Positions 29,102 to 64,000 are shown, counted from the first letter of the stretch. The stretch is 64,000 nucleotides of DNA from Candidatus Brocadiia bacterium (GCA_046483385.1 JAWODG010000220.1:1029-65028), one strand, 5' to 3'. Notes: a model not told the origin generated them from the sequence alone. Program-made: numbers and translations.

Positions 29102-29136
29102 CTCGGTGCACCTCCCGTGGTGCGACAGCGTGTGAG

Positions 29137-46115: not shown

Positions 46116-46204
46116 GCATTGCGCCGATTCCGCGCGCGTTGAAGAAAATGGCCGGGCGCCCGTAGAATGGCGGGCATGCATACGCGCAATCTTCCCTGAC
46201 AGGC

Positions 46205-48406: not shown

Positions 48407-48969
48407 GCCGCCGACGCGCCGTATTCCTGGATCGCGACGGGACGCTCATCGAGGACGTCGGCTACCTGAACCGGGCCGACCAGTTGCGAGTACTGCCGGG
48501 GGTGCCCGCTGCTTTGCGTGATTTGCGCGCGGCGGGGTTTCTGTTGATCGTGGTAACCAACCAGAGCGCCGTGGCCCGGGGATGGCTGACAGAGCCGAAG
48601 CTCTGCGCCATCAACCAGCGCCTGAACGCGATGCTGCGCGCGGAGGGGGCCGGACTGGACGCCTTCTACTGCTGTCCGCACCTGCCCGATGGAACCGTCC
48701 GGCGGTACACGCACGAGTGCGAGTGCCGCAAGCCTCGGCCGGGGCTGCTGCTCAAAGCAGCGGACGAATGGGGTATCGATCTTGAGCGTTCCTACGCCGT
48801 GGGGGATTCGGAGCGCGACGTGGTGGCCGGCAACCGCACGGGGTGCCACACCATCCTGATAGCGGAAGGTTCGACCGGCTTGCCGGACAGCGCGGCCGAC
48901 GAGTGTGCGGCCGACCTGGCGGAGGCGGCGCACCTGATTCTGCGGAGAGAGGGTCGCGAATTCGACTGA
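48403..48969 (+). CDS. gmhB: D-glycero-D-manno-heptose 1,7-bisphosphate phosphatase (HAD)
   Basis: AVFLDRDGTL, VVTNQS.VARG, CPHLP..CECRKPRPG, VGDSERD. Confidence 0.9.
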   Translation: MSRRRAVFLDRDGTLIEDVGYLNRADQLRVLPGVPAALRDLRAAGFLLIVVTNQSAVARGWLTEPKLCAINQRLNAMLRAEGAGLDAFYCCPHLPDGTVRRYTHECECRKPRPGLLLKAADEWGIDLERSYAVGDSERDVVAGNRTGCHTILIAEGSTGLPDSAADECAADLAEAAHLILRREGREFD

Positions 48970-48972
48970 TGC

Positions 48973-50778
48973 TCAACGGTACGACGGCTGGGGCTTCATG
49001 GTGGGGTCCTTCATGAAGCTCTCGTCGATGGTCTCCATCTGGATGGGGGCTCTGTCCATATCCTCGACCTCGGCCAGCATCTCCTCGACCTTCTCCCGAC
49101 CGACCTCGGCCACCAGTTGGGACCTCAGGTTGTCGTGGACTTCATCCGGGATTCGCCCGACGCGCCCCGCCAGTATGTCCACCATGGCCGCCTGCTTAAT
49201 CTCATTAACGCGGATCAGACCGCGCAGGTTGTCGTGTTCCTCGGGATCGAACCTTTCTGCAAAGACGCGGGCCTCCTGCTCGATGGCGGCGGCCTTGTCC
49301 AACTCGCCGTATCCGCGGTAGAGCAGCGAACGCACCAGGAATCCGTAGGTCATCCGGCGTGCCTGGCTGAAGGTCATGGAAGCTGTGTGCTCTTCGAGTT
49401 GGTCCTCCAAGAAAGCATCGTAGGTCCACTTTCCCATCTTCTCGGGGAACTCCTCTTTGAGCAGATGGAAGTACTCGCGCGATTTCTCGTTGTCGCCCAT
49501 GAAGTGGAACTCGATAACACCCCGGATGAGGAAATTGCCGTAGCCAGTGATGACGCCCCCCGTATAGCGCGATCCCCAGGTCTCCAGGGCCCGCTGGAAG
49601 AACTTAAGAGCGGCGTCGGCGAAACGGTAGTCGGTCCCCCAGGTATAAAGCACGTTGCCTTCCGAATCGGACAGCATGCGGCCGTGGGCCACCAGGTTCT
49701 GCAGCGAAGCGTAGATGACCCGCTCAAGCTGCACGCGCTCATATTCGTATATCGTCTCCTTGTCGCCGTAGTGCTCGTCCAGATCCTCACGCGCGTAAGG
49801 CTCGGGCAGCCCGAACTCATCCACGGCCTTGTAAAGGCGCTCCTCCCTTGCCGCCAGTTTCTCCAGGCCTCTGGAAGCCCAGTAGATGGCGTGGGGGAAG
49901 GGACTGCGCCAGTCGAAGGGGCCGTACCGGTCCATCAGCGTGAGCATGTACTGCGGGTCCATCGAATACTCTTTTCTGAGTTCGCGGGCCCGGGCGAAGG
50001 CGGCCACTTTGTCCAACGCCTCACGGTTGAACGGCTGCTCGACAATCTTACGCACTTCCTCCCGCACGTTCTCCCGGTCGCGGAAGAGCTTGAAGAAGCT
50101 CCCCACGATGTCGAAGCCGTATTGTGCACAGTCATTCACGAACCGTCTGACGTCATCGTCCCTGAGGAGCTCTTCGCGGGTCTCCGGCGCCTCGATGAAC
50201 TTGCGCAACGTTTCCCGGCTGCCCCCTCCACCGAACAGGACGTGCATCTCCTTGGCCAGTTCCCGCTTGTAGAACATGTGGGCGTAGTCGTCTTCCTGGC
50301 CGATCTTGTGCTGGATCATGAACGCCAGGCTGAAGTAGAGGTCCACCGCGTTGGGGTTGGCCGGTATGCCTTCGTCCCGAAGCAGCTCAATGCCGCTGCG
50401 CACCCAGGCCCACCGGTCAACCAGCCAGTCCACCTGGCTGCTCACGTTGTAGGCCATGTTCCAGCTCTGGATGTCCCACACTTCGGGGATGCGGGGAGCC
50501 AGCTTGCAGGCCCAATCGGCCAGTTGCACCAGTTCGAAGAAGCGGCCCTGCTGCTTGAGCGCCTCCATGCGAATCCACACCACGTCTATGATGATCCCGC
50601 GCGCCCAGCCCAGCACCTGGGTTGCCATGGCCAGCTCCGGGCTGATGCCCTTCACCGGCTCGTTGGACAAGTCGTATCTGCTGCGCATCTGCTGCATCGG
50701 CACGATGGCCATACTGGTTCCGACCAGCAGCGCGAGGGCGAGCAACGAGAGAAGCAGTCTTCTGATTCTTGTATGCAC
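48973..50778 (-). CDS. Conserved hypothetical membrane-anchored helical protein
   Basis: N-terminal TM/signal, LGWARGIIIDVVWIR, FFELVQLADW..KLAP, WNMAYNVS, GIELLRDEGIPANP, YGPFDWRSP..HAIYW; last gene of the ABC/SPFH operon. Confidence 0.8.
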   Translation of the reverse strand: MHTRIRRLLLSLLALALLVGTSMAIVPMQQMRSRYDLSNEPVKGISPELAMATQVLGWARGIIIDVVWIRMEALKQQGRFFELVQLADWACKLAPRIPEVWDIQSWNMAYNVSSQVDWLVDRWAWVRSGIELLRDEGIPANPNAVDLYFSLAFMIQHKIGQEDDYAHMFYKRELAKEMHVLFGGGGSRETLRKFIEAPETREELLRDDDVRRFVNDCAQYGFDIVGSFFKLFRDRENVREEVRKIVEQPFNREALDKVAAFARARELRKEYSMDPQYMLTLMDRYGPFDWRSPFPHAIYWASRGLEKLAAREERLYKAVDEFGLPEPYAREDLDEHYGDKETIYEYERVQLERVIYASLQNLVAHGRMLSDSEGNVLYTWGTDYRFADAALKFFQRALETWGSRYTGGVITGYGNFLIRGVIEFHFMGDNEKSREYFHLLKEEFPEKMGKWTYDAFLEDQLEEHTASMTFSQARRMTYGFLVRSLLYRGYGELDKAAAIEQEARVFAERFDPEEHDNLRGLIRVNEIKQAAMVDILAGRVGRIPDEVHDNLRSQLVAEVGREKVEEMLAEVEDMDRAPIQMETIDESFMKDPTMKPQPSYR

Positions 50779-50797
50779 TGTTGTATCGGCCTCCGGC

Positions 50798-52498
50798 TCA
50801 CACGATTAGGCGGGCCAGTTCCCTGCGGGTGTAGAAGTAAAAGGCGATTCCCATGGCGATGCCGCCCTTGATGAACAGCAACACGGCGCTGGATTCGGCG
50901 ACGCGACCCGCCGAAACCATCCGCCCGTTCACCAGATCTCCCAACGGGTTGAAGCTGCCGAAATTGGGCATCACCGCCACCACCGCGCCCGCGAACAGTC
51001 TCCATGCCTGGTCCAGGTAGACCGTGAACGTGGTGAGCTTCGCGTAGATGTTGGGCTCCACGAAGTTACTGTGGAACCAGGACGCCAGCATGCCCCCCAC
51101 GAACAGACAGAAGACAACCAGACTGGCCACCGGGAAACTGAACAGCGAACCGGCCATCAGCCCCAGCGCCGCCAGCAGCCCCACGTGGAACATGATCATG
51201 ACGAGCGATCTGTAATAGTTGGGCAGAAAGCCCTCCTCCTTCTGCAGCACCTCGATGGGACTGTCGACGTCAAAAGCCACGGTGCCGGGCGTCATACTCT
51301 CGAACGCCAGATACAGCGTGCCGTCTCGCTGGACGAATCGCCCCGGGATTGCGATCTCGTGGAAACGGTTGCTCTGCCAGCCGCCCGGCGGAGAAGCCAC
51401 GCGGAAGGAGGTGCGGTGGAGTTCGTACCGGGGTTCCTCCTGCCCGGCATTGCCTTCCTTCTCCACCATGATCAGCGGGTAAAATCGCCCCACGGTGCGC
51501 GGTGCGCCAAAGGCGAAGGGCCTGAACCTGACCTGCAGGGGATCACGGTTCTCGGGCGTGCGCTGCTCCTGGGGGTCCAGCCCGGAAAAACGCCACAGGA
51601 TGCGCGGACGCTCCGGCGTTACGCTCTGGCTCTGCTGCTGCTTCTCCTTGATGAGACGCTGCCGGTAGCTGTGCACCGCCATTGGTCTCTCTTGTTGCTC
51701 CAGCCATTCACGCGTCTTGCGTTCAATCTCCTCGTCGGGGCCCGGCAGGGGCGCCTGCACGGCTTTGCGGGCGGTGAACACCTCCTGCTCGATCCGCTGC
51801 CGCTCCGCGACGGCCAGCTGCTTCTCCTCCTCGGTCATCGTGCTGTAGTCCGGCTCCCGCACCATGTAGCGCACCAGCCCGTACGTAGCGCCGGTCATCA
51901 CGGCCAGCGACGCTGCGCACAGTATGAACACGCCGAACCACTTGCCCAGCAGGAACTGCCACCGGTGAAGTGGTTTCGTATCCGTCACGTTAACATGCTG
52001 CCGCTCCACCTCCGAACAGATGCTGGCCGTAGTGAGGAATATGGCAACCAGCGAAAGCAGCACCAGCGCAAGCGACAACGAGTAGAGCAGCACCAGTTGC
52101 ACCTGGCTTTTCAGGCTCCCCTCCGTTTTGAGAACGAAGGGCAGGGATGGCATCAGAACGATGAAGAAGAGGAAAAGGACGACGACCACCTTACGGTTCA
52201 TGGCCTCCATGATCAGCTTCCGCGCGACGGCCCAGATGGGCTCCCAGTGACGCAGGATCACATAGACCGCCACTCCGACGCCTAACAGACACAGCATCGC
52301 GGCTGCTGTCGTGGTCCAGTGGATGCCGAGGGCCCGCACGGCCGCGCCCGGGTCCTCGCCCAGCGTGACGAGGTATTTGTAGGCCGACCATGCGATCTGC
52401 ACCACCAGAGGCACCAGCGCCAGCAGGAACAAACCGAGCAGGATCTCCGGAACACGGCGCCGGAACCACTCCCAGACCTGGCTAATCTTGTCTCTCAT
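50798..52498 (-). CDS. ABC transporter permease (ABC-2 type) with large extracytoplasmic loop
   Basis: Multiple TMs, SICSEVERQ....DTKPLHRWQFLLGKWFG, C-terminal YFYTRREL. Confidence 0.85.
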   Translation of the reverse strand: MRDKISQVWEWFRRRVPEILLGLFLLALVPLVVQIAWSAYKYLVTLGEDPGAAVRALGIHWTTTAAAMLCLLGVGVAVYVILRHWEPIWAVARKLIMEAMNRKVVVVLFLFFIVLMPSLPFVLKTEGSLKSQVQLVLLYSLSLALVLLSLVAIFLTTASICSEVERQHVNVTDTKPLHRWQFLLGKWFGVFILCAASLAVMTGATYGLVRYMVREPDYSTMTEEEKQLAVAERQRIEQEVFTARKAVQAPLPGPDEEIERKTREWLEQQERPMAVHSYRQRLIKEKQQQSQSVTPERPRILWRFSGLDPQEQRTPENRDPLQVRFRPFAFGAPRTVGRFYPLIMVEKEGNAGQEEPRYELHRTSFRVASPPGGWQSNRFHEIAIPGRFVQRDGTLYLAFESMTPGTVAFDVDSPIEVLQKEEGFLPNYYRSLVMIMFHVGLLAALGLMAGSLFSFPVASLVVFCLFVGGMLASWFHSNFVEPNIYAKLTTFTVYLDQAWRLFAGAVVAVMPNFGSFNPLGDLVNGRMVSAGRVAESSAVLLFIKGGIAMGIAFYFYTRRELARLIV

Positions 52499-53720
52499 CG
52501 TCCTCCGCGTCCCGGCTCGAATCGTCCATAAGTTCGCTCAACACGTCGTCGCGCACGCCGGCTGAAGGTTCGACCGCGGTCCGGGGCTCCTCCTCGCCGG
52601 TCTCCTGTTCGGCGGGCTCCTCCTCGCCTGTCTTTTCGGATGCTCCCATCCGCATGAGGTCTTCGATCAGTTCCCTGTCGCCCTCCACGGGCAGGGCGGA
52701 GGCGGGCTCCTCGGCCGTTTCGGCGCCCGCTTGCCTCTCCGCTTCCAGACCGGCGCTGACCAGGTCCTCGACCAGCTTCTCGCCCTCACCCTCGCGTTCG
52801 CCCAGGAATGCAGCCGCCCCCGCACCGACCTCGGCACCCGCGGTGGCCAGGCGCTCCCGGCGTGCCTCCTGCACAACCTGCAGGAAGAACTCCTCCAGCC
52901 GCCGCGTGGGCGCGCTGACCTCCACGGGGCCGTCCTGCCCCACGGCTTTGCGGATGGCGGCCACAACTTCCTCCACCGCGCCCGCCTCCATGCGGGGAGC
53001 CCGAATCTGAGTCATCTCCTCGGCGGTCAGAAGCTCCTCGACGGTGCCCAACGCACGTCGCTTGCCTCCGTAGAGGATGCAGATCCGGTCGCAGATTTCC
53101 TGCACGTCGGCCAGCAGGTGACTGCAGAGGAAAACCGTCTTGCCCCGATCGCGCAGGGTCAGGATCAGGTCCTTCATCTCCCGGGCGCCCACCGGGTCCA
53201 GGCCCGTTGTCGGTTCATCCAGTATCAGCAGGTCGGGGTCGTTTATGAGCGACTGGGCCAGCCCTATCCGCCGCGCCATGCCCTTGGAGAACTCGCCCAG
53301 GGGCCGGCGGCGCGCCCGCTTCAGTCCCACCATGTCGATGAGCGCCTCCGTGCGCCGTTCCCGCTCCTTGGGAGCGAGTCCGAAGAGCCGTCCGAAGAAG
53401 TCCAATGTCTCCTCGGCGTTCAGGTACGAGTACAGGTGGGACTCCTCCGGCATGTAGCCGATGCGCTTCTTGATGTCCACGTCCCGCGGGCCTTTGCCGA
53501 ACAGGCGGATGGCGCCCCGCGTGGGGAACAACAGCCCCAGCATCATCCGCACCGTGGTGGTCTTTCCGGACCCGTTGGGGCCCAGAAGGCCGAACACCTC
53601 GCCCTGCTTGACCTCCAGGTTCAGGCCGTCGACGGCCTTAACGCGTTCGCGCCCCCAGAAGCCCCGGAACACCTTGGTCAGCTCGATAAGCTCCAGGACG
53701 GTCTCATTGGTCACTGGCAT
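52482..53720 (-). CDS. ABC transporter ATP-binding protein with acidic C-terminal extension
   Basis: GPNGSGKTT, FSKGMARR, LILDEPTTGLDP, CSHLL. Confidence 0.95.
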   Translation of the reverse strand: MPVTNETVLELIELTKVFRGFWGRERVKAVDGLNLEVKQGEVFGLLGPNGSGKTTTVRMMLGLLFPTRGAIRLFGKGPRDVDIKKRIGYMPEESHLYSYLNAEETLDFFGRLFGLAPKERERRTEALIDMVGLKRARRRPLGEFSKGMARRIGLAQSLINDPDLLILDEPTTGLDPVGAREMKDLILTLRDRGKTVFLCSHLLADVQEICDRICILYGGKRRALGTVEELLTAEEMTQIRAPRMEAGAVEEVVAAIRKAVGQDGPVEVSAPTRRLEEFFLQVVQEARRERLATAGAEVGAGAAAFLGEREGEGEKLVEDLVSAGLEAERQAGAETAEEPASALPVEGDRELIEDLMRMGASEKTGEEEPAEQETGEEEPRTAVEPSAGVRDDVLSELMDDSSRDAEDDERQD

Positions 53721-53731
53721 AAAAGGTCACC

Positions 53732-55708
53732 TCAAGCGGCAACTGGAACTGGTTTGCTCTCGTCAACGGTCGTCCCTGAGTACGGCGACAGGTTTTCGCC
53801 AAACCGGACGAGCCGTGCGCTGTTGAAGATCACGATAAACGAACCCACGTTGTGCAGGATGGCCGCCATCACGGGCGTCAGCAGGTTCATGCTGGCCAGC
53901 ACGAGTCCCCCGATGACGAAAATGGCCGCGAAGATGAGGTTCTGCATGATCACCTTCCGCAGCCGTCGCGACAGCCGGACCAGGAACGGCAGGCGCCCCA
54001 GGTCCTCGGTCATCAGGGCAATCGAGGCGCTGTTGATGGCCACGTCGCTGCCAGCGGCGCCCATGGCGATACCCAGGTCGCCGGCGGCCAGTGCGGGCGC
54101 GTCGTTGACGCCGTCGCCAACCACGGCCACCGTATGGCCCTCCTCCCGCAGCATCTCCACCAACCGCAGCTTCTGTTCGGGCAGACACTCGCCCTGCACG
54201 TCGGTGCAGCCCAGTTCCGCAGCCACCTTTTTGGCTACGGGCCAGCGGTCTCCGGTCAGCAAGGATACCCTGCGCACGCCAAGTTCCTGCAATTCTCCGG
54301 TGGACTGCTGCGCCTCCGGCCGGGTGCGGTCTTCCAGGCCGATCCAGCCGATGCAGCGGCCGTTTTTGGCCACGTAAAGTGTGCTCATCGCACCCGTAGC
54401 CTCGCGGTGCTTCTCGCTGCGAATGCCGCCCAGGTCCACGCCGTGATCCTCCAGGAAGCCGGCCCGGCCCATGACGATTTCGTCCTCGCCCAGACGGCCG
54501 ACCACGCCTTTGCCGGGCGTCTCGCGGAAGTCCTGCACGTTCTTCAGCGCCACGTTGGCCTTACGGGCGACCTTGGTCACTGCCAGGGCCACCGGGTGCC
54601 GGGAGTGCTCCTCCACGCTGGCGGCGGCCTCCAGCAGTTCCACGCCTTCCACATCCTCGGCCGGCACCATGCGCGTAACCGTCAGTTCACCCGTCGTCAG
54701 AGTTCCCGTCTTGTCGAACACCATGGCGGTCACGTCCCCGGCGACCTCCAGATGGGCCACGTTCTTTATAAGGATACCCAGGCGGGCCGCGGCGGAGAGG
54801 CCGGCCACCATAGCCGTCGGAGTGGCCAGCACGAATGCGCACGGACAGGCGATGACCAGCACGGCGATGGAACGCTCCGGATCGCCGGTGAACACGCCCA
54901 CGATGACTGCAATCATCAGGACCACGGGGGTGTACCAGGCGGCGTAGCGGTCGATAAGCTGCATGAACTGCGTCTTGGTGCCCTCGGCGGCCAGTATCAG
55001 TCGTTTCACCTTGCCCAGGGTCGTATCCTCACCCACGCGGGTAACTTCCACTTCCACCGACCCGGTCAGGTTGTTGGTGCCGGCGAAGACCTCCTCGCCC
55101 TCCACCTTATCGGCGGGGACTGATTCACCGGTGATGGTGGCCTCGTCTATCGTGGTCTCGCCCGTGCGGATGAGGCCGTCGGCCGGAATCCGGTCGCCCG
55201 GCCGCACGCGCACCCGGTCGCCCGGTTTCAACTCGGAGACCGGCACTTCCTCTCCCGAGACCAGTTCCGCAGTGGGGGGAGTGAGCGTCATCAGCTTTTC
55301 GACCGACTCTCGGGCCCCGGCGGCCGTCTGCTCCTCGATGAGCGTGGCCAGCAGCATGAAGAACGCCACCAGCCCGGCCACTTTGTAGTCCCCCAGTGCG
55401 AAGGCTGCGATGACGGCGACCGCCACCAGCACCGTCATGTGCATGCGCCCGCGCCGCACTTCCTGCAGGGCGCCCATGATGATGGGCGTGGCCAGTATGA
55501 CGGCCCCTATAAACGCGCTGATGGCACCTATGGCCTCTTTATCGGGGAAAAGGACATAGTGCGCCAGGTAGGCGTTCAGCACTATGACGAAACCGATGAA
55601 GGTAACGACGAGCCGGCTTTGAACCGAGCCGACGTGCTCGTGGTCCAGTCCCTGGGAATGCGATGTCGCGTGGTCAGACACTGTCTTTATCCTCCTATTC
55701 GATGCCAT
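53732..55708 (-). CDS. Heavy-metal-type (P1B) P-type ATPase
   Basis: TGES, IACPCA, DKTGTLT, SRHP, LLTGD, GDGVNDAPALA; short His-containing N-terminus and no CxxC metal-binding domain. Confidence 0.95.
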   Translation of the reverse strand: MASNRRIKTVSDHATSHSQGLDHEHVGSVQSRLVVTFIGFVIVLNAYLAHYVLFPDKEAIGAISAFIGAVILATPIIMGALQEVRRGRMHMTVLVAVAVIAAFALGDYKVAGLVAFFMLLATLIEEQTAAGARESVEKLMTLTPPTAELVSGEEVPVSELKPGDRVRVRPGDRIPADGLIRTGETTIDEATITGESVPADKVEGEEVFAGTNNLTGSVEVEVTRVGEDTTLGKVKRLILAAEGTKTQFMQLIDRYAAWYTPVVLMIAVIVGVFTGDPERSIAVLVIACPCAFVLATPTAMVAGLSAAARLGILIKNVAHLEVAGDVTAMVFDKTGTLTTGELTVTRMVPAEDVEGVELLEAAASVEEHSRHPVALAVTKVARKANVALKNVQDFRETPGKGVVGRLGEDEIVMGRAGFLEDHGVDLGGIRSEKHREATGAMSTLYVAKNGRCIGWIGLEDRTRPEAQQSTGELQELGVRRVSLLTGDRWPVAKKVAAELGCTDVQGECLPEQKLRLVEMLREEGHTVAVVGDGVNDAPALAAGDLGIAMGAAGSDVAINSASIALMTEDLGRLPFLVRLSRRLRKVIMQNLIFAAIFVIGGLVLASMNLLTPVMAAILHNVGSFIVIFNSARLVRFGENLSPYSGTTVDESKPVPVAA

Positions 55709-55728
55709 CGCCGGGGCGACCGCAATCC

Positions 55729-56895
55729 TTAGCGTTCTCGCCGCGCTCCGCTTGGCTGTCGCGGCGGTTGCCGGTTGAACATCAGGCGTAGTTCACGTTC
55801 GGTGGCGCCCCCGGACCGGTGCAGCACGAAGCCGCCGGGTGATTGGTCCATCACGGCCTCAATCGTCCGGGCATAATATCTGTCCAGCAGGATCCGCCGC
55901 ACCTCGGGGGACTTCCGGTAGACGGGCAACAGTTGTTTGAGGCTCTCAGCGTCGGCCCGCACGTTGCGCACCAGCCGCTCAGCGTAGCCTCGGGCGGCGC
56001 CTTTTATCTCGGCGGCACGCGCCCTGGCGTTGTTGAGTATACGGCTGGCCTCCGTTTCGCCTTCGCGCTCCAACGTATTGCGCAGACTGTAAGCGTTCTG
56101 GGCCCTGTCAAAGGCAGCCCTCACGGCGCCGGGTTCGCTGGGATTCTTCACCTTTTCCATTTCGATGGCCTCAACGGCCACAATCTCCACTCCCAACGGA
56201 TGCCCCGCACCCTCCTGGAATCGCTCCATCCGAGCGCGCAGATCCTGTTCGATTCGGCTGAACAGATTCGTCCTGTTCAGCACCTCGGCGACGCTCATGG
56301 TCCCCACCACCTTCGAGGTCGCGCCGCGCAGCATCTGTCGCAACAACTCCACGGGGTCTTCAAGGCCGAACCGATAGGCCATGGCGCCCTCCACGTCGCT
56401 CGGCACATTGTAGCGGGTCCTCAGCCGCAGATGTACTAAATTCATGTCGCCGGTCAGAACATAGCCGTCCTGCCGGATATCCAGCGAACGGACGGCGCGC
56501 ACGGCCCCGTCCTCACCCGGTGTCCAGAAGGCTCTATCCAGGTCCAACACCTTCTCATCGGTGGAAATGATGTGGACCTTCTCCCACGGCCATCGGAAAT
56601 GCAGCCCGCTGCCGGGCAGCATCACCCATTTGCCGCGAACCCTCACCAGCTTACCGAAGCGCGTTTTGAAACGCACTTCGGAAGGCCTGACGGTGAAGAC
56701 ACCGGCCAGCAGATAACCGGCGACCAGCACGATGATGACCAGTTTCAGAAACCGGAAACTGGTCTTAAGGGCGCTGGCCAGGGCCTGACTGCCGGCGTCC
56801 TCCGGTTCCTGCTCGGGCTCAGGTTGTTCCATGGCAAGCTGTTCGGGCTGCTCCGGTCCCTCTCGCTGGTCTGCAGGGTAGTTTTCTTCGCCCAT
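55729..56895 (-). CDS. SPFH/band-7 protein, HflK-like
   Basis: TM, FTVRPSEV...RFGK, GLHFRWPWE, LTGDMNLV, V.AAFD.AQ.A, A.GYAER.V. Confidence 0.88.
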   Translation of the reverse strand: MGEENYPADQREGPEQPEQLAMEQPEPEQEPEDAGSQALASALKTSFRFLKLVIIVLVAGYLLAGVFTVRPSEVRFKTRFGKLVRVRGKWVMLPGSGLHFRWPWEKVHIISTDEKVLDLDRAFWTPGEDGAVRAVRSLDIRQDGYVLTGDMNLVHLRLRTRYNVPSDVEGAMAYRFGLEDPVELLRQMLRGATSKVVGTMSVAEVLNRTNLFSRIEQDLRARMERFQEGAGHPLGVEIVAVEAIEMEKVKNPSEPGAVRAAFDRAQNAYSLRNTLEREGETEASRILNNARARAAEIKGAARGYAERLVRNVRADAESLKQLLPVYRKSPEVRRILLDRYYARTIEAVMDQSPGGFVLHRSGGATERELRLMFNRQPPRQPSGARRER

Positions 56896-56898
56896 CGC

Positions 56899-57975
56899 TC
56901 ACTCCTTATCCGCAGAGGCAAGGTCGGGGGCGGCGGCATCTTCCAGCCGGGCCATGTCCTCGGTGAGGGCTTCCACGTCCGACGGTCCTTCGATGCCCTG
57001 CTCGAACAGGGAGAAAGGCTCGGTCTGGGTGCTGACCACGAAGGTCAGCGGCCGGCCGTTGGCCGCGGCGTCCGCCGTGATCTTGCGGATTGCGTCCAGA
57101 CGACGCAGGAAGATAGCCAGCGTCTCGTCCTCCGCGAAGGTGTCGTAATAGGTGGCCGCGCGGGCCTCCGCGTCGGCACGGATATTCTTCGCCTCCGCCT
57201 CCGCCTCAGCCATCACCCGCTCGGCCTCTTCACGGGCCTCGGCTATCTTCGTACGCTTTATCCGATCACCTTCGGCCCTCAACCGCTCGGCCTGGGTATT
57301 GCGTTCTTCCTGCATGCGGGCAAACACCGCCTGCGTGGTGCTCTCCGGCAGGGCCACCCAGGCGATGCCGAGCGAACAGACCTCAATTCCATAGGACTGT
57401 TCCCGGCTGGCCAGGCTCCGCTTGACGCCTTCGAATATCTCCTGCTCGATTTTATCAAACTTGAGTTGCTCGGGCTGGGTGTTGACGATGTCGGCCAGCA
57501 CGTGGTTGCCGAAGACGGTCGCCGTCTGGTCGCTGAGGATGGTGCGCAGCCGCCGTGCGGCCACTCTCTCGTCGCTTTGCAGCGCCCGCTCGAACCCCAC
57601 CGGGTCCACGATGCGCCACGTGACATAGATGCGGGGCAACACCTGGTTGCCGTCCGGCAGTTGGATCTGCGTGAGTGGGCCGTCCAACGTCCGCACCCAC
57701 TGGTCGGCCTCCTTCACGGTGTCGATAGGATAGGGCCACTTGAAGAACCACCCGGCCTCATTGACCACCTCCACGTCCGGCGGCAGACCTTCCGGCACGG
57801 GCATCTCCGAGGCTTCAACCGTCTTGGTGACGGGCGGGCGGATAATCTTCTTCGGCTCGTTCCACCGGTAGAGAACCGCCGTCTTGTGGACCGGCACACT
57901 GAAGGTGACCAGCTTGACCAGAAGCACCAGGCAGACTCCGGCCACCACAACAATAGTCAGTTTGCTTTCCCTCAT
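56899..57975 (-). CDS. SPFH/band-7 protein, HflC-like
   Basis: TM, GWFFKWPYPI, TWRIVDP, YGIEV, AVFARMQEER..AERLRAEG, AEAEAEAKNIR. Confidence 0.9.
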   Translation of the reverse strand: MRESKLTIVVVAGVCLVLLVKLVTFSVPVHKTAVLYRWNEPKKIIRPPVTKTVEASEMPVPEGLPPDVEVVNEAGWFFKWPYPIDTVKEADQWVRTLDGPLTQIQLPDGNQVLPRIYVTWRIVDPVGFERALQSDERVAARRLRTILSDQTATVFGNHVLADIVNTQPEQLKFDKIEQEIFEGVKRSLASREQSYGIEVCSLGIAWVALPESTTQAVFARMQEERNTQAERLRAEGDRIKRTKIAEAREEAERVMAEAEAEAKNIRADAEARAATYYDTFAEDETLAIFLRRLDAIRKITADAAANGRPLTFVVSTQTEPFSLFEQGIEGPSDVEALTEDMARLEDAAAPDLASADKE

Positions 57976-57979
57976 CTAG

Positions 57980-60001
57980 TTATTCCTCCGCCGTATCGAG
58001 TTCCAACAGTTGCGGCCTGAGCCGCTCCTGCAGGTCGATGATGTTGACTTCATGTTCACTGACCGGCACAACGTAAACGGACTGTTGGCTCAACGCTGCC
58101 TCTATGCTGTCGAAGTAGCTGCGGAACAGATACACTCTTTCGGATTTCCTGTATGCTTCCAGCCGTTTTGTGAACTGGGCCTGTTCGGCTACGGCGTTCT
58201 GCACCAGGCGCGTGGCGTAGCCTCGGGCAGTGTGAACGGCCTCCCTGGCGCTCGCCAGGGCATCCTCCACCAACCTGGATTCCTCCACGTCGCCTTGCAG
58301 CACCAGGCTCTCGTGCTGCTGCAACGCCGTCACGACACCTTCGTAGGCGCCGGCCGTTTTCGCCGGGGGATGCACAGACGGTATGCCGGCGTAGACCACC
58401 TCCACTCCAAGGCCCGCTTCGTCGGCCGCCTCCTGCACCAGGCGCTGGAAAACCTCCACCGTGTGCCCCCTGTCCTGGGCAATCCAGCGCAGGAAGTCCT
58501 GCGAAGCCGCTATTCGGCATAGTGCCCTGTAGCTCAGCTTCTGCAGATGGTCCTCCAGTTGGCGTTGCCGATAGCAGTAGGTAAACGCCGCATCCTCATC
58601 CACCGTCCCGTCTTCTTTTCTGTTCAACCGGAAGTGCAGCATTCCTTTCAGGCGGGCCAGATTCACCTCCGGCGCCCGGGCCGCCACCGGCTCGCCAACC
58701 GGAGCGTCAGCTTCCTCGGCGGGCTCCACCGCTCCTGGCGCCTCGCCCTCCTCCAGTTCAGAACTCGGCACCACGAAGCTGATCTCGTATCCCTCGTCCG
58801 GGTCGATATGTCGCTCCCGCCAGAGAATGAACTCATCGTCCGAGCTTGTCGCCACGCGGGGATCGACCTCCCACGGCCTGCGTTCCTGCGCCTCCCTCAC
58901 TTTGCCCAGTTCCAGGCTCTGCACCGCGTAAGCGGGCACTGTCCGCGCCACGGAGATGGGCCAGGGCCACTTCAGATGGTAGCCCGGCTGGAACACGCTG
59001 GCCTTCAGTCCCCTCTGTGCGTCCGCCGGGCGCACAATTGGCTTGCCCAGCCTCTCAATGAAGGCCGCCTCGCTGGGATCCACCACCACCACGGCGCTCA
59101 GCAGCCAGAGGGAGAAAAGTTGAATAAGCAACAACGGGACAATGGCCCTTTCCATAAAGTGGTAGAACCACGTCTCCGACACCTTGAAGCCGAACTGGTA
59201 GTCCAGCGTGCTGGCCACTGTCTTGAGCACGCCGCCCGGCTCGGCGAACATCCCCAGCAGACGGCTGTCGTACGGCGGGCGCCTCTCCTGACCCGGCACC
59301 CGAGGGCGATAGATGTCCAGAATCAGGTTCAGAACAAGTTCGATTCCCACCAGCCCCATCATGGCCGGGATGACCCAGGCCACAATGGCGTGGCCCCACG
59401 TCATCCCGAAGTGGTAGAGCCCCATGGCGACGGCTATCAGCACGCAGGCGATCACGTTGCCCAGCAGATACCCTCCCGAGGCCCTCAGCAGGGCGAACTC
59501 CCGGCTCTCTGCCAGGCCCGCGGCGTATTTGCCTATCAGGAAGCCGACAAAACCTATCATCACCATGCCGACCGCCACGGTCAGCGGCTGCTGAACGGTC
59601 AACGCTTCCACGCCCAGCATGCTCATCGTCATCCGGTAGGTGAAAAACAGCAGCGAGCCGCTAAGCAGTATGGTGATGACGGGGACGAAGTACTTCTCCA
59701 GCACGAGCAGGCTGCTGCTGGCCCGCATCGTGTCCAGCTCGGTCTCCTCGAAGATCTCCTCGCTAAGGCGGGTCTGCTTCAGCCGTTCCAGCTCTTCCCG
59801 TTCCTCCCGGGCCAGCCGGCGCTGCCGGCCATGCACCCACACGACGGCCCACACAAGGACGCCCGGCATCAAGTGCCACATCTCCGCGGTGACCGCCGCG
59901 CTCCGACTCTGCGTGCTCAGAATCCAGCACACCAACAGGAAGACGCCCTGCAGCATCAGGCCGAGCAGGGCTGTATATTCGAGTTTTTTGGGGCTAGCCA
60001 T
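57980..60001 (-). CDS. SPFH/band-7 protein (HflK-like) with multi-pass N-terminal membrane domain
   Basis: About 7 TMs, then AFIERLGKP, PGYHLKWPWPI, LGVEVV....VHPP..A.AYE.VV.A. Confidence 0.85.
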   Translation of the reverse strand: MASPKKLEYTALLGLMLQGVFLLVCWILSTQSRSAAVTAEMWHLMPGVLVWAVVWVHGRQRRLAREEREELERLKQTRLSEEIFEETELDTMRASSSLLVLEKYFVPVITILLSGSLLFFTYRMTMSMLGVEALTVQQPLTVAVGMVMIGFVGFLIGKYAAGLAESREFALLRASGGYLLGNVIACVLIAVAMGLYHFGMTWGHAIVAWVIPAMMGLVGIELVLNLILDIYRPRVPGQERRPPYDSRLLGMFAEPGGVLKTVASTLDYQFGFKVSETWFYHFMERAIVPLLLIQLFSLWLLSAVVVVDPSEAAFIERLGKPIVRPADAQRGLKASVFQPGYHLKWPWPISVARTVPAYAVQSLELGKVREAQERRPWEVDPRVATSSDDEFILWRERHIDPDEGYEISFVVPSSELEEGEAPGAVEPAEEADAPVGEPVAARAPEVNLARLKGMLHFRLNRKEDGTVDEDAAFTYCYRQRQLEDHLQKLSYRALCRIAASQDFLRWIAQDRGHTVEVFQRLVQEAADEAGLGVEVVYAGIPSVHPPAKTAGAYEGVVTALQQHESLVLQGDVEESRLVEDALASAREAVHTARGYATRLVQNAVAEQAQFTKRLEAYRKSERVYLFRSYFDSIEAALSQQSVYVVPVSEHEVNIIDLQERLRPQLLELDTAEE

Positions 60002-60069
60002 TTGCCAGGTTTTCCTCCGTTGTTACACAATTTTGCTACGTTCGAGGCTCACGGGATCGCTCACCATGG

Positions 60070-61095
60070 TCAGATGACCTCGCGCCGCTCGAACAGGCAG
60101 GCCGCAAGCGCCACCATGGTGGCGCAGTAACCCAGGGCGTACAACGCCGTCATCCCCACGTACGGCCAGGGGATGTATGGCACCTCGTGCATCAACTTGT
60201 CGCCCACCCAGAATACATAGAAATTCGGCACGATTCTGAGGGCCACCCAGGCCGCCGCCGACCGCGCCGCAAATTGCCCGAAGAGAAACTGCGACGTCAT
60301 TCCCACGAAAAAAACCATCAGGCAGATGATCACATTCAGCACGACGTTCAGCCGAGTGGAGATGGCCAGCGCCACCGACGTCATCACCCACACTCCGAAC
60401 CAGACCAGCACCGCCGCTATGGCCACCTGTCCCATGTTCCGCTCGGCCATCACTTCCGGGAAAAGGTTGAACTCCCACTGCGGCCCAACGAGCATCAGGA
60501 CAACCAGAGCCACCACGTACAGGGGAAGCGCCGTCAGCAGCGCCGTAGAAGGAAAGCTTGAGCGGTAGAAATAGTTGGCGTACATCCCCACCGCCACCCC
60601 GATAAGCGCAGGCCCCACCTGCAGCAAGAAGGCCGGCCAATCCATCGTGAAGCTCGCCGCGCTCGGCACCCCTATGCGGAGCGTGGTCATCAGCACAGCG
60701 CTCAGAAGGAAAAGACCCACACCCATGGCCATGGTGACGCCCAGGAATTTTGCCATCACGAAAACCAGCCGCCCCACCGGCTTGCTCAGGATGGCGCCGA
60801 CGGTCTGGGTCTCTATTTCACGGCTGATGGTCTGGGTCACGCTCAATACGGCCAGCACGACGCCGAACAGCAGGATGGTGGCCAACCCCATGTCCACCAT
60901 GAGCTTCTCGTCCTCGACCATGCTGAACATGGTGATGGCGGGGGAAAGGCCGATCAGCACCATCCCCATGACCACAAGGAGGGCGTAGACCGGTTGCCTG
61001 ATTATCTCGATGAACGAGTTCTTGGCGATGGTCCAGAGGCCGGACAGCAAGATTCTTCCTTTCTGGCGCGCGAACTGCGGGAGGGCACACTCCAC
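60070..61095 (-). CDS. ABC transporter permease (ABC-2 type)
   Basis: IAKNSFIEIIRQP, ISREIETQTVGAILSKPVGR..FVMAKFLG, C-terminal LFERREV. Confidence 0.88.
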   Translation of the reverse strand: MECALPQFARQKGRILLSGLWTIAKNSFIEIIRQPVYALLVVMGMVLIGLSPAITMFSMVEDEKLMVDMGLATILLFGVVLAVLSVTQTISREIETQTVGAILSKPVGRLVFVMAKFLGVTMAMGVGLFLLSAVLMTTLRIGVPSAASFTMDWPAFLLQVGPALIGVAVGMYANYFYRSSFPSTALLTALPLYVVALVVLMLVGPQWEFNLFPEVMAERNMGQVAIAAVLVWFGVWVMTSVALAISTRLNVVLNVIICLMVFFVGMTSQFLFGQFAARSAAAWVALRIVPNFYVFWVGDKLMHEVPYIPWPYVGMTALYALGYCATMVALAACLFERREVI

Positions 61096-61162
61096 GCTGG
61101 ATTCGCCGGGTTAGTGCAGAGCGCCCGGAAAAGGTTCAACGGTTTTCTCAGGAACGCGTCGG

Positions 61163-62521
61163 TCAGCGCTGGAGCATGTCCAGCACTTCGTCGGGGGCGA
61201 CCTCGGCCCCACGGCGCCGCAGCCGATCGCACACATTCTCGGCCGGATAGGGAGCGGCGCCGATCCGCCGGAAAAACTCATTGCGGGCCCGCGCGTCATC
61301 TCCAAACCAGTTCTCGGCCCACTCGCCCGTGTAGCCGACCCCGGCCGTGGTCTTAAGCAGCGTATGGCCCCACGCGACGTGGGCACCGTCCAGGAAGGTC
61401 TGCCGGTATGGTTCGAGTGCGGGCGCCGAGAAAGTGTCCACGAACTTCTGGCCGTACTTGTTCATCTCGGTCCCCACCAGCACGGGCATGTCCAGCGCGC
61501 CGGCCGCATCGAGCGCCGCGTGCAGGTTCCGCACTTTGACGGCCTTCTCCTCCGGATCATCGAGGTTCCAGTTGCGGTCGGGGATGATGGTTATGGTGGG
61601 AATCCCCTTGTCGCGCAGGAACCCGAAGTGCTCCATCGGGTCGGCCTCTCCGGCCCGGGTGCCGTCCAGCCAACAGCCGCTGGGAATGCTCCCGCAGTCA
61701 AGCGTCATACGCACGACGTCGTCCAGCAAGGGGAAACTGCCCTCTTCGGGCGGCGCGTAGCCCACACCACCGTGCTTCATCAGGCGCGCGCGGATCAGCT
61801 TCTTCAGTTCCACCACGTCACCGATCAGCTCGCGTACGCTATCCTCCGGCTCCTCCAGCTTCTCGGACCAGAAGGCCACCAGCTCGTCTTCATCAGGATA
61901 GACCTCCCGGGCCTTCAGGTCGTAGGCGACCAGCATGTGGCGCTCGGTGGCGTTGCCCGCGGGCGTCAGGGGTAGCACGTCCTGGTCGTAGTCAATGCGG
62001 ACGGTGTCAAGGTACTCGTTAATGCGCTGCGTCTTGCCTCGGTTCCGCCGCTGGGCGCATTCGGACATCGAATCGAGCGTGGCCGCCGCCTCCGTCCCCG
62101 GCTCCGGCAGACCGGTGAAACCCGTGCCGCTCAGGTAGAAAACGCCCGGTTCGTGGGGGGAGTTGATCTCCTTGTCCGCATATTCGGGGATGAACACGCG
62201 GCTCTCGAACCCTCCGGAGGCCTTCAGATTCACCGTCCGGGCCGCCCGGAGGAACTCCTCCACCCCGTCAAGAACGTCGAAATCAACGACGGCCGCCGCC
62301 TCCAGCCCGTAGCGGTGGGCCTCCCACGCCAGACGGCTCGGGGAGTAGCCGTAAGCGTTGTAGGAGAAGAAGGTGTGACAGTGCATGTTGACCTCGGGGC
62401 GCCGCTCCGGATGCTGGTCGGGAGGGGCCGCCTGCACCAGCCGCCCAAGCGCCCGGCGGCGCTCCTCGGCGTCGAAACTGTCCAGACTCTCCACCAGTTC
62501 TTCGTCGATGTCATCGGCCAT
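61163..62521 (-). CDS. PHP-domain-like protein with atypical motifs
   Basis: VNMHCHTFFSY, AAVVDFDVLDG, GFESRV, GNATERH, GTEMN; N-terminal HEAT-like helix. Confidence 0.7.
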   Translation of the reverse strand: MADDIDEELVESLDSFDAEERRRALGRLVQAAPPDQHPERRPEVNMHCHTFFSYNAYGYSPSRLAWEAHRYGLEAAAVVDFDVLDGVEEFLRAARTVNLKASGGFESRVFIPEYADKEINSPHEPGVFYLSGTGFTGLPEPGTEAAATLDSMSECAQRRNRGKTQRINEYLDTVRIDYDQDVLPLTPAGNATERHMLVAYDLKAREVYPDEDELVAFWSEKLEEPEDSVRELIGDVVELKKLIRARLMKHGGVGYAPPEEGSFPLLDDVVRMTLDCGSIPSGCWLDGTRAGEADPMEHFGFLRDKGIPTITIIPDRNWNLDDPEEKAVKVRNLHAALDAAGALDMPVLVGTEMNKYGQKFVDTFSAPALEPYRQTFLDGAHVAWGHTLLKTTAGVGYTGEWAENWFGDDARARNEFFRRIGAAPYPAENVCDRLRRRGAEVAPDEVLDMLQR

Positions 62522-62677
62522 GGGGACACCACCAGCGCAGGGAAGCAAGGAGGAAGCAGAAAGGCGACTCTATTGCAGGGCCCGCCCCGAATCAAGTGAA
62601 ACGCCCGCGTTGCGACCCGCCCCTTCCCGCACTCCTCCCTGCGTGCGCGCCACCGGCTCCGGCGGGACTGCCACTTG

Positions 62678-62707
62678 TTGACACGCGCCGTCTGGTTGCC
62701 CTATATT
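62678..62707 (+). promoter_or_regulatory. sigma70-type promoter of ldh
   Basis: TTGACA, 18-bp spacer, TATATT. Confidence 0.55.
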
Positions 62708-62729
62708 CAAAGCGAGGGGAGAAACCACC

Positions 62730-63686
62730 ATGGCGGTTAACACCGACACAGGACCGAAGGTCGTCATAATCGGCGCCGGCGCCGTGGGTTCCACCTTCGC
62801 CTATACCCTTACGAACAGCGGCCTGGCCGAGGAGATCATCCTCGTCGACAAGGATGTCGAGAAGGCGGAAGGCGAGGTAATGGACCTGAACCACGGGCTG
62901 TTCTTCGCCCCGCCGGTGCGTATCGCCGCCGGGGACTACGCCGACTGCCGGGACGCCGACCTTATCGTCATCACCGCGGGCGCCGCCCAGAAGCCCGGAG
63001 AGAGCCGCCTGGACCTCACGGGGCGCAACATCCGCATCTGCCGCTCCATCATGGACGACATCCTCGAGCAGACCCGCGATGCGGTCATCTGCATGGTCAC
63101 AAACCCCGTCGATATATTGACTTACGATTCCATTCAGCACTCCGGGCTTCCCCCACGGCAGGTGTTCGGCTCGGGCACCGTGCTGGACAGCGCCCGGTTT
63201 CGCTTCCTGCTGAGCCAGCACTGCGGAGTGGACCCGCGCAACGTCCACGCCTACATCCTGGGCGAGCACGGCGACAGCGAGATGGCGCCCTGGAGCATGG
63301 CCCACATGGCCGGGGTGCAGATCGACCGGTTCTGCGAGCAGTGCGGACGCTGCGACTACGAGGAGCACCGCCCCCAGATCGTCGAGCAGGTGCGGGAGTC
63401 CGCCTATCACGTCATCGAGGCCAAAGGCGCCACCCAGTACGGCATCAGCCAGGCCCTGCTCCGCATCTGCGGGGCCGTCCTGCGGGATGAACATAGCGTG
63501 CTGACCGTCTCTTCACTCATCGAGGACTACGTGGGCATCAGCGACATCTGCCTGAGCATCCCCTGCATCGTCAGCCGCAACGGTATCGAACGGCAGTTGA
63601 AGGCCGACCTGGCCGAGAACGAGGTCGAGGAGTTGCGCGCCAGCGCCCGTGCGCTGAAGGACGTCCTGGAGTCCGTGCCGGCCTGA
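62730..63686 (+). CDS. ldh: L-lactate dehydrogenase
   Basis: IIGAGAVG, TAGAAQKPGESRLDL (Gln specificity residue), NPVDI, GTVLDSARFR, LGEHGDS, KGATQYGI. Confidence 0.95.
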   Translation: MAVNTDTGPKVVIIGAGAVGSTFAYTLTNSGLAEEIILVDKDVEKAEGEVMDLNHGLFFAPPVRIAAGDYADCRDADLIVITAGAAQKPGESRLDLTGRNIRICRSIMDDILEQTRDAVICMVTNPVDILTYDSIQHSGLPPRQVFGSGTVLDSARFRFLLSQHCGVDPRNVHAYILGEHGDSEMAPWSMAHMAGVQIDRFCEQCGRCDYEEHRPQIVEQVRESAYHVIEAKGATQYGISQALLRICGAVLRDEHSVLTVSSLIEDYVGISDICLSIPCIVSRNGIERQLKADLAENEVEELRASARALKDVLESVPA

Positions 63687-63707
63687 CCACCCCCGGGAAA
63701 GACCGCC

Positions 63708-64000
63708 ATGCTTGAGTCACTTGTTGAACTGCTGGAAAACGCCGGGAGCCCCCGCGTCTGCGTCGTCGGCGACGTTATGCTGGACACCTACGTCTGGGGC
63801 GGCGTCTCCCGCATATCGCCCGAGGGCCCTATTCCGGTCGTGCACGCGGACAAGACCGAACACCGGCCGGGAGGCGCCGGAAGCGTGGCCGCCATGCTCA
63901 GCGGACTGGGCGCGGAAGTGACGCTGGTCGGAGTAGTGGGCCGGGACGACGCCGCCGAGGCCCTGCGGCGGGAACTGGAGGAGCGCGGCATATCGGCAGA
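63708..64000 (+). CDS. hldE: ADP-heptose synthase HldE/RfaE kinase domain, partial
   Basis: Manual translation MLESLVELLENAGSPRVCVVGDVMLDTYVWGGVSRISPEGPIPVV...PGGAGSVA..LSGLGA; runs off the window. Confidence 0.88.
   Translation, partial: MLESLVELLENAGSPRVCVVGDVMLDTYVWGGVSRISPEGPIPVVHADKTEHRPGGAGSVAAMLSGLGAEVTLVGVVGRDDAAEALRRELEERGISA

Follow-up and report, generated by a model that had tools for sequence, protein, structure and literature searches.

Introduction

To our knowledge, HflKC-FtsH is the only bacterial SPFH ring that is understood structurally, and the contents of SPFH rings, and the reason for enclosing them, have long been in question. The present study concerns an operon of eight genes in a 64,000-nucleotide stretch of DNA (referred to here as the window) from a Candidatus Brocadiia bacterium (GCA_046483385.1 JAWODG010000220.1:1029-65028), which encodes three SPFH proteins, a P1B-type ATPase, an ABC ATPase with two permeases and a protein of 601 amino acids (aa). 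The three SPFH proteins resemble HflK/HflC-FtsH of Escherichia coli in their predicted organization, with N-terminal transmembrane (TM) anchor(s), a periplasmic SPFH domain and a coiled-coil tail, as well as in the presence of K-like and C-like subunits side by side.

Four other described systems provide points of comparison. Excerpts of the literature on the stomatin/erlin cages of eukaryotes describe SPFH rings that fence in transport proteins (PMC12407830, PMC13724742, 10.1101/2025.06.14.659634), while in the PacL-Ctp 'effluxosomes' of Actinobacteria, as covered by excerpts of a 2026 review (PMC13460109), a P1B pump is encoded together with dedicated membrane scaffold proteins. NosF and NosY of the NosDFY-NosL copper-delivery machine are the closest bacterial solved relatives of the ATPase and the large permease of the operon, and both systems represent ABC-2 type V folds whose working part is periplasmic. 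The membrane domain of one of the SPFH proteins is reminiscent of the cation diffusion facilitators (CDFs; YiiP, CzcD and ZnT/SLC30), as it comprises six helices in an N-in/C-in arrangement, with TM-scores of 0.54–0.68 and weak co-linear profile matches.

Based on the analyses presented below, the favoured reading, to which we assign a probability of roughly 45%, is that a dedicated HflK/C-type periplasmic cage would organise a platform for transition-metal export or handling in bacteria of the Planctomycetes-Verrucomicrobia-Chlamydiae (PVC) group. An earlier note on this DNA had proposed an SPFH cage whose clients are the pump and/or the ABC complex rather than a protease, an idea that is plausible. 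The operon is widespread and undescribed; neither this cluster nor CDF-SPFH fusions turned up in literature searches.

Organization of the operon

Eight co-directional minus-strand open reading frames (ORFs) were identified at positions 48973–61095 from the ORF list for positions 46000–64000 of the window and the corresponding translations. In transcription order, they are spaced by 68, 4, 3, 20 and 11 nt, a 17-nt overlap and 19 nt. Families were assigned using Pfam and NCBIfam scans against the respective cut-offs, and TM segments using a hydropathy scan and the family alignment. The genes and their domains are:

60070..61095 (-), PermS341, 341 aa, small ABC-2 (type V) permease
57980..60001 (-), TMSPFH673, 673 aa, multi-TM N-terminal half and Band_7/HflK-like C-terminal half
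59084..60001 (-), residues 1–306 of TMSPFH673, CDF-like six-helix membrane domain and seventh linker helix
57980..59083 (-), residues 307–673 of TMSPFH673, HflK-like SPFH ectodomain and coiled-coil tail, predicted to be periplasmic
56899..57975 (-), SPFH358, 358 aa, HflC-like SPFH protein with one N-terminal TM helix
55729..56895 (-), SPFH388, 388 aa, HflK-like SPFH protein with one TM helix behind an acidic cytoplasmic N-tail
53732..55708 (-), P1B658, 658 aa, P1B-type transition-metal ATPase with 8 TM helices
52482..53720 (-), ABC412, 412 aa, ABC ATPase of the ABC-2/DRA type
50798..52498 (-), PermL566, 566 aa, NosY-like ABC-2 permease with a large periplasmic insert
51230..51781 (-), residues ~240–423 of PermL566, periplasmic beta-sandwich (jelly-roll, resembling a carbohydrate-binding module (CBM))
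48973..50778 (-), U601, 601 aa, predicted periplasmic all-alpha solenoid resembling tetratricopeptide repeats (TPRs), membrane-anchored or secreted

Approximately seven TM segments precede the SPFH domain of TMSPFH673, whereas one each was found in SPFH358, SPFH388 and U601 and eight in the pump. Every item of the earlier description of eight tightly packed minus-strand genes, including the families named, thus proved correct against the ORF list, Pfam and NCBIfam. All eight genes are real rather than chance ORFs, since orthologues of all eight, with the order retained, are present in dozens of other genomes. Long plus-strand ORFs across the operon DNA lack such orthologue support and were dismissed as shadow frames of high-GC DNA. 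Scanning for promoters and terminators performed no better than on shuffled sequences (4 versus 2.1 and 12 versus 9.1, respectively).

Conservation and distribution of the gene cluster

To assess the conservation of the cluster, species-representative genomes were scanned with a pattern from the family alignment, yielding at least 576 stretches, from which 80 loci were retained and compared with ten window proteins by tblastn. Counts take only those loci with enough sequence to contain the gene in question. Of the 24 genomes in the window's family, 23 encode full-length relatives of TMSPFH673, as do several further families of the class; by source names, these relatives fall in the non-anammox 'Brocadiia' and Phycisphaerae. 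Among the genome loci compared, the 7-TM SPFH gene was followed by SPFH358 in 73/73 cases, and SPFH388 (68/70), P1B (58/60), the ABC ATPase (55/57), PermL (53/55) and U601 (45/50) were also retained. The complete co-linear order (T-C-K-P-A-L-U) was observed in 45 of 50 loci from Brocadiia and Phycisphaerae, and PermS was located directly upstream of the 7-TM SPFH gene in 72 of 73 loci (13 on the same strand and 59 divergently oriented). Between the classes, sequence identity amounted to 22–35% for the SPFH proteins, 27–30% for U601 and 50–60% for the pump.

Twelve more distant Planctomycetota loci all retained the SPFH trio, with the full SPFH/ABC/U601 core present in nine. The P1B gene was found in its usual place in four of these twelve loci, one of which (L092) lacks tblastn matches to PermS, PermL and U601, and had moved to the far side of PermS, yet remained adjacent, in another four. 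In an ABC-less variant (L100) the gene likewise occupies this place, and it was absent from the 20 kb fetched for the remaining three, one of these genomes carrying a 53%-identical copy 22 kb away. Both variants derive from large-genome Planctomycetota and combine the SPFH trio and pump with other transporter genes: a ZnuBC-type ABC-3 permease and a second ATPase in L092:1381-6073, and an ArsP_1-type permease, without the ABC-2 part, in L100:7719-9266.

When metagenomes were scanned using relatives named Verrucomicrobia by NCBI as seeds, at least 494 stretches were returned, located on contigs without a taxonomy of their own. These Verrucomicrobia-like contigs carry the same eight genes in the same order and on the same strand, with PermS in 58/58 loci, SPFH358 in 52/52, SPFH388 in 44/44, P1B in 40/40, the ABC ATPase in 31/35, PermL in 26/31 and U601 after PermL in 30/31.

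The phyletic distribution of the cluster was evaluated in an even sample of 301 Planctomycetota genomes, using thresholds of E ≤1e-44 for the 7-TM SPFH protein and E ≤1e-130 for the P1B clade, with classes assigned by hand from two tables. The 7-TM SPFH protein was detected in 56 genomes and a pump of this clade in 55; both were present in 51, the SPFH protein only in five, the pump only in four and neither in 241. Fragmentation or incompleteness affects several of the nine discordant genomes. The order retained at this divergence, the adjacency retained after rearrangement and the shared phyletic pattern demonstrate that the genes co-occur elsewhere, so that the gene-neighbourhood check suggested in the earlier note returned ordered co-occurrence across Planctomycetota classes and Verrucomicrobia-like contigs.

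As a separate observation, one locus (L056) carrying PermS and the 7-TM SPFH gene derives from a metagenome-assembled genome labelled Candidatus Aegiribacteria, outside the PVC group, and may reflect gene transfer or a binning error. Furthermore, in-frame stops or split frames were noted in the 7-TM SPFH or pump gene at L022:10001-12046, G010:C14:293612-295642 and L043:14362-16320; some of these are ORF-extension artefacts, and others may be assembly errors or decaying copies.

The SPFH trio is distinct from canonical HflK/HflC

All three SPFH proteins exceeded the Pfam cut-off of 23.6 bits for Band_7 (PF01145), with scores of 63.1 (SPFH388), 58.0 (SPFH358) and 32.1 bits (TMSPFH673). By the NCBIfam cut-offs, however, the trio does not belong to the HflK/HflC equivalogs: SPFH388 and TMSPFH673 scored 112.1 and 73.4 bits, respectively, against TIGR01933 (hflK; cut-off 159.4), and SPFH358 scored 85.5 bits against TIGR01932 (hflC; cut-off 134.4). 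The genome from which the window derives (4.63 Mb in 241 contigs, 89% complete) harbours a second adjacent SPFH pair on another contig, which represents canonical hflC and hflK, as its members pass these cut-offs (264.8 versus 134.4 bits for hflC and 225.2 versus 159.4 bits for hflK). FtsH matches above cut-off are present on two other contigs, corresponding to at least two FtsH genes in the genome, and no FtsH match was found on the contig of the window. Similarly, no ftsH was found in any examined locus (the 80 genome loci, the 12 distant loci and the Verrucomicrobia-like contigs). The separate canonical hflKC-ftsH that the earlier note had wished to see checked is therefore present elsewhere in the genome, and on this ground the trio represents an extra, dedicated SPFH set.

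A quick maximum-likelihood tree of 41 rows (13 for each window paralogue plus the canonical pair) resolved each window SPFH paralogue as one clade, with all three exhibiting the same Brocadiia/Phycisphaerae split. SPFH358 grouped with canonical HflC (support 100), and SPFH388 and TMSPFH673 grouped with canonical HflK. The parallel clades, together with the separate canonical pair, therefore indicate that the trio is an old, co-inherited extra SPFH set. By homology, its members would form an HflK/C-type periplasmic ring, with the pump and the ABC complex as putative clients.

The membrane domain of TMSPFH673 resembles cation diffusion facilitators

The approximately seven TM helices previously noticed on one SPFH subunit were borne out by the hydropathy scan and the family alignment. 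The adaptor that, according to the earlier note, they could constitute is recast here, based on ESM Atlas, Pfam and hhalign results, as a divergent CDF-like transporter domain followed by a single linker helix. In a structure search of the ESM Atlas, which includes this protein, with residues 1–320, a TM-score of 0.68 over residues 4–291 was obtained to an 'HflK family' cluster of 111 members, all of which possess both Band_7 and Cation_efflux, and a TM-score of 0.54 over residues 4–245 to a genuine CDF cluster, the likeness of the window domain to the CDF fold being drawn from Atlas models only. The members of the 111-member cluster are proteins of ~603 aa, mostly from Pseudomonadota, which suggests that clear CDF-HflK fusions exist outside the PVC group.

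At the sequence level, 20 relatives were scanned against Pfam, of which 14 were near-full-length (636–776 aa). Four of these 14 matched Cation_efflux (PF01545): one above the cut-off (27.2 versus 26.6 bits), two below threshold though co-linear (E 0.0024, covering profile positions 2–192 of 198, and E 0.0036) and a fourth weakly (E 0.82). Comparison by hhalign of 24 membrane domains with 12 CDF membrane domains from related genomes produced an alignment of 184 co-linear columns spanning the whole CDF domain (E 6e-4, at a probability of only 28.5%), compared with E 0.14–0.24 and probabilities below 0.5% for the same profiles against two ABC-2 permease families as controls. The window domain does not belong to PF01545 as such, having neither a match nor conserved TM2/TM5 site residues. 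In the alignments, TM2 and TM5 do not conserve the ligands that bind metal in canonical CDFs. E221 on TM6 is invariant in both phyla and is followed, one and two helical turns later, by polar residues. TM2 and TM3 are separated by a long, charged cytoplasmic helix, and the strongest conservation in the whole protein was observed in the cytoplasmic loop after TM6 (YRPR...DSRLLG...LDYQFGFKVSETWFY).

With about two chances in three, residues 1–306 represent a degenerate CDF-derived module, as suggested by the model-based and profile comparisons; such a module may serve to bind partners or protons instead of transporting zinc. As the CDF topology places both ends inside, the seventh helix would give the SPFH domain a periplasmic location, as is the case for HflK. 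A split-gene form of the membrane domain is not claimed, since the search for it returned mostly contig-end fragments, and the 'short' Verrucomicrobia proteins run on into SPFH sequence where the contig allows.

The pump is a P1B-type ATPase with CPC in TM4

P1B658 is a P1B-type heavy-metal ATPase, scoring 545.7 bits against TIGR01525 (NCBIfam cut-off 346.25), and shows 50–59% identity across the phylum. Residues invariant in 16 orthologues comprise D332-K-T-G-T336, C288-P289-C290, N590, G601, H619 and S623; TM4 thus carries CPC, and TM6 reads H-N-V-G-S. The N-terminus is His-rich, and no HMA domain was detected by the Pfam scan. Whole-length matches to solved pumps were non-discriminating (AfCopA 2e-100, LpCopA 2e-90, sCoaT 3.5e-89 and ZntA 1.2e-83), whereas the TM5-TM6 region was closest to the P1B-4 pump sCoaT (7qbz; 1.4e-16, versus 1.9e-9 for CopA and 9e-6 for ZntA). 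In these alignments, H619 corresponds to the His of H-E-G-S-T in sCoaT and to the Met of M-A-L-S-S in CopA.

Cu(I) pumps of the P1B-1 group (CopA type) possess YN in TM5 and MxxSS ligands in TM6, and usually an N-terminal CxxC HMA domain. P1B658 falls outside this group: the YN position of CopA reads FV, the M-A-L-S-S position of LpCopA reads H-N-V-G-S, and the HMA domain is lacking. P1B-4 pumps, in turn, are characterized by HEGxT in TM6 and six TM helices. P1B658 carries CPC in TM4 and eight hydrophobic segments; only the TM6 His and Ser/Thr align with sCoaT, and the pump would appear to work like a relative of the P1B-4 pumps without being a member. Excerpts of the aforementioned 2026 review (PMC13460109) define P1B subtypes by the TM4 tripeptide, with SPC defining P1B-4, and describe the zinc pump CtpC as having CPC and the TM6 His-Asn typical of P1B-6, without CxxC. 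P1B658 shares these features with CtpC, including the absence of a CxxC metal-binding domain; the N-X18-H spacing given in these excerpts does not apply, as N590 and N608 are located 28 and 10 residues, respectively, before H619. The putative cargo is a transition metal, and a divalent first-row metal seems more likely than Cu(I).

The ABC complex and its putative solenoid partner

ABC412 scored 106 bits against ABC_tran (Pfam) and possesses an acidic C-terminal extension of ~150 aa. Its best solved relatives are the nucleotide-binding domains of ABCA1/4/7/3 (3e-66), followed by NosF (7o0y_B; 3e-49). For ABC2_membrane_2 (PF12679; cut-off 27.2), PermS341 scored 29.3 bits and the other permease scored just below the cut-off (26.2 bits). 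Based on the presence of the PF12679 domain or fold together with a DRA-type ATPase, the complex belongs to the ABC-2/type V transporters, with PermS341 probably representing one half of a heterodimeric membrane unit. The profile of the PermS family reached no solved relative by sequence. PermL566 carries two extra N-terminal helices, found only in the window's class, and the insert between its TM3 and TM4 constitutes the periplasmic beta-sandwich. The ABC part is NosFY-like, with a periplasmic beta-sandwich. The previous designation of these genes as an ABC exporter holds with respect to an ABC machine with two permeases, whereas the exporter role is revised, as a NosFY-like complex may act as a periplasmic mechanotransducer.

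U601 does not match any family in Pfam or NCBIfam. Its predicted structure (mean predicted local distance difference test (pLDDT) value of 79) consists of an N-terminally anchored all-alpha solenoid, for which fold searches retrieved generic TPR matches only, giving no function. U601 is thus modelled as a membrane-anchored TPR-like solenoid. Conserved W/N/Y/H/D patches include WNMAYN, HK..DD.H..YK and W..HA.YW, and relatives were found in Planctomycetota and Verrucomicrobiota clusters of the ESM Atlas.

A proposed mechanism and its alternatives

In the favoured reading, the three HflK/HflC-type proteins (two K-like and one C-like) would assemble into a ring or cage on the periplasmic face of the inner membrane, as expected from homology. 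The CDF-like six-helix domain of one K-like subunit may tether a transporter-like membrane mass to this ring, having lost the canonical Zn/H+ site and kept an invariant intramembrane glutamate and the cytoplasmic loop. The CPC-type P1B ATPase would take up a transition metal in the cytoplasm, probably a divalent one (Zn/Co/Fe/Mn/Ni-like) and not Cu(I), and pump it into the ring-bounded periplasmic space. The NosFY-like ABC-2 complex, composed of two different permeases (one with the beta-sandwich) and the acidic-tailed ATPase, would act on the periplasmic side with the TPR-like protein, and may deliver the metal to a client, expel it from the periplasm or remodel the local envelope.

The case for a metal-related role is built on the P1B pump, the CDF-derived domain, the NosFY-like ABC part and the metal genes in variant clusters, and it fits two precedents, i.e. 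the PacL 'effluxosomes' and SPFH rings that fence in transporters, as far as the excerpts of those sources describe them. Since inheritance is strictly vertical and single-copy, a housekeeping role in metal allocation is favoured over an acquired resistance island. In a more speculative and doubtful version of the metal platform, the SPFH dome would be a closed periplasmic reaction chamber filled with metal by the pump, with the fused CDF-like domain serving as a valve (for proton or metal relief, or for sensing, through the invariant glutamate) and the ABC complex, beta-sandwich and TPR-like protein handing on or expelling the metal at the expense of ATP. Such an arrangement, if true, would represent a membrane-bound bacterial micro-compartment for metal trafficking, with cage and clients encoded in one operon.

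Several observations weigh against the metal platform. The substrate is unreadable from the pump motifs, as the NCBIfam subfamily cut-offs for Cu (415 versus 397) and Cd/Zn (472 versus 313) are both passed. TMSPFH673 itself lacks a Pfam Cation_efflux match, PF01545 is precomputed for only one of 120 listed relatives, the hhalign probability is low, and the sole sequence match of the profile to a solved structure, human ZnT1, is non-significant (E 1.7). The residues of the CDF metal site are absent, so that this domain may carry no metal, and the periplasmic beta-sandwich has no conserved Cys, His or Met. The window showed no metal-responsive regulator, and the ABC part is missing downstream of the pump in 4 of 35 metagenome loci. 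The genomes counted are related, and the fractions reported for the loci overstate their independence. Finally, ABC412 is closest to ABCA lipid exporters, the PermL insert is CBM-like, and in Sedimentisphaerales the cluster adjoins genes for acyl carrier protein (ACP), ketosynthase and FabA.

These last points bear on a different explanation, in which the operon encodes a machine for lipid or envelope-polymer export and for membrane microdomains: the ABC-2 complex would extract a lipid or glycolipid, the beta-sandwich and TPR-like protein would pass it outward, the SPFH ring would organise a lipid domain, and the P1B pump would merely be a co-regulated neighbour. The ABCA-like ATPase, the CBM-like insert, the degenerate CDF site and the lack of periplasmic metal ligands keep a lipid or glycan role alive, and the fold class is common to the ABCG, Wzm, TarG, Lpt and Mla permeases; LptF/G carry a jelly-roll in the same place, between TM3 and TM4. 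Moreover, genes for GNAT, ACP, two ketosynthases, FabA-like dehydratases and a seryl-tRNA synthetase lie upstream of PermS in 25–46 Phycisphaerae-type loci (e.g. L023:2686-8815), which could represent a specialised lipid pathway associated with the cluster or simply reflect lineage synteny. However, these fatty-acid genes do not flank the cluster in the window or in Verrucomicrobia-like contigs, and were set aside as lineage synteny rather than as part of the system. A lipid role also leaves unexplained the dedicated P1B clade, which shares the phyletic pattern (51/55) and stays adjacent after rearrangements, as well as the CDF-like domain on an SPFH subunit and the ZnuBC-like genes in variants. 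This explanation is considered unlikely. The 'envelope remodelling' of the earlier note is a weaker rival to the transition-metal theme.

Somewhat less likely still is a machine for periplasmic metalloprotein maturation similar to NosDFY-NosL, in which the P1B pump supplies metal slowly, the SPFH ring confines the reaction, and a non-transporting ABC-2 complex uses ATP to move the beta-sandwich and the TPR-like partner, thereby loading a secreted or periplasmic client. The likeness to NosY, however, probably means no more than that it is the nearest solved member of PF12679; the cluster encodes no beta-helix of the NosD type, no NosL and no NosZ-like client, the periplasmic insert lacks conserved metal ligands, and no client was identified. 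The absence of any joint machine, with the trio acting as a second FtsH-modulating HflKC set and the transporters being neighbours through shared regulation only, would agree with the HflK/HflC-like nature of all three SPFH proteins by NCBIfam and with the availability of at least two FtsH genes as possible partners. This is regarded as improbable, however: the trio scores below the equivalog cut-offs, the canonical pair is located elsewhere, none of the examined loci contains ftsH, and gene order kept at 22–35% identity across phyla, together with the transporter-like fusion, is hard to explain by co-regulation alone.

Flanking genes and hints of expression

Two co-directional genes upstream of the operon (61163..63494, minus strand) constitute a lineage-specific extension outside the conserved core, travelling with the cluster only in Brocadiia-type loci, as judged by tblastn across the 80 genome loci:

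61163-62548 (-), PHP-domain protein, 461 aa, weak PHP match of 22.7 bits, below cut-off
62592-63494 (-), protein of no named family, 300 aa

No mobile element flanks the cluster in the window. PADLOC returned only generic ABC-ATPase matches and nothing for the other seven proteins, thus providing no link to defence. Contigs from two salt-lake metatranscriptome runs, both belonging to a single study, correspond to parts of six of the eight genes with 0–2 differences, a weak hint of expression, as contigs from RNA libraries are no proof of transcription and stretches left uncovered carry no information. A microbial-mat DNA run holds the operon at ~92–93% identity, from which it follows that close relatives carry it in other habitats.

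Elsewhere in the window, the following genes were noted:

46205-48406 (+), BatA-like protein of 733 aa with VWA, GATase1-like and Ig-like domains, downstream of the operon, followed by a small HAD hydrolase gene converging on the operon's end
38657-39931 (+), NusB fused to a PHP phosphoesterase domain, 424 aa, the second, weaker PHP protein being that encoded directly upstream of the operon
27647-29712 (-) and 29722-33740 (-), RtcB RNA ligase beside archease, then an AAA/SMC protein resembling SbcC and a calcineurin-like phosphoesterase resembling SbcD
24657-27347 (-), Ser/Thr protein kinase fused to an FGE-sulfatase (formylglycine-generating-enzyme-like) domain, 896 aa
7544-10326, two sulfatase genes
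2326-4737 (-), protein of 803 aa with glycoside-hydrolase family 30 domains and a long C-terminal ankyrin-repeat array, a fusion that is unusual for a bacterial glycosidase

Comparison with known systems

Approximately one in five of the sampled Planctomycetota genomes carries the system, which occurs in PVC bacteria of sediment, soil and peat. As the operon itself encodes the likely clients and a transporter-like domain is fused to one subunit, the idea of a cage with clients becomes directly testable. If the favoured reading is true, the operon would additionally define a new clade of P1B-ATPases with partners of its own and reveal a new way in which the NosFY-type ABC fold is used.

Compared with HflK/HflC-FtsH, the set encoded in the window comprises three subunits instead of two, lacks ftsH in the operon and is associated with transporter partners rather than a protease; it also scores below the equivalog cut-offs, includes a subunit with a CDF-like 6-TM domain, and coexists with a canonical pair encoded elsewhere. 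The stomatin/erlin cages, according to the excerpts cited above, are cytoplasm-facing homo- or hetero-oligomers whose clients are not co-encoded, in contrast to the present case, in which the putative clients belong to the same operon and a transporter-like domain is fused to a subunit.

With respect to PacL-Ctp, the PacL proteins are described in the review excerpts as small DUF1490 proteins on the cytoplasmic side and not as SPFH proteins, whereas the system described here additionally comprises a CDF-like domain, a TPR-like protein and an ABC-2 complex, and its pump differs in the N-X18-H spacing. Unlike the CDFs, the membrane domain of TMSPFH673 lacks the TM2/TM5 ligands and the C-terminal cytoplasmic dimerisation domain, and instead possesses a charged helix after TM2 and a seventh helix leading into the periplasmic SPFH domain. 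The operon likewise falls outside the NosDFY maturation systems, as no NosD beta-helix, NosL or NosZ was found among the eight proteins or the conserved neighbours. In contrast to NosDFY, two different permeases are predicted to form a heterodimer, with the beta-sandwich built into one of them and the TPR-like protein encoded separately.

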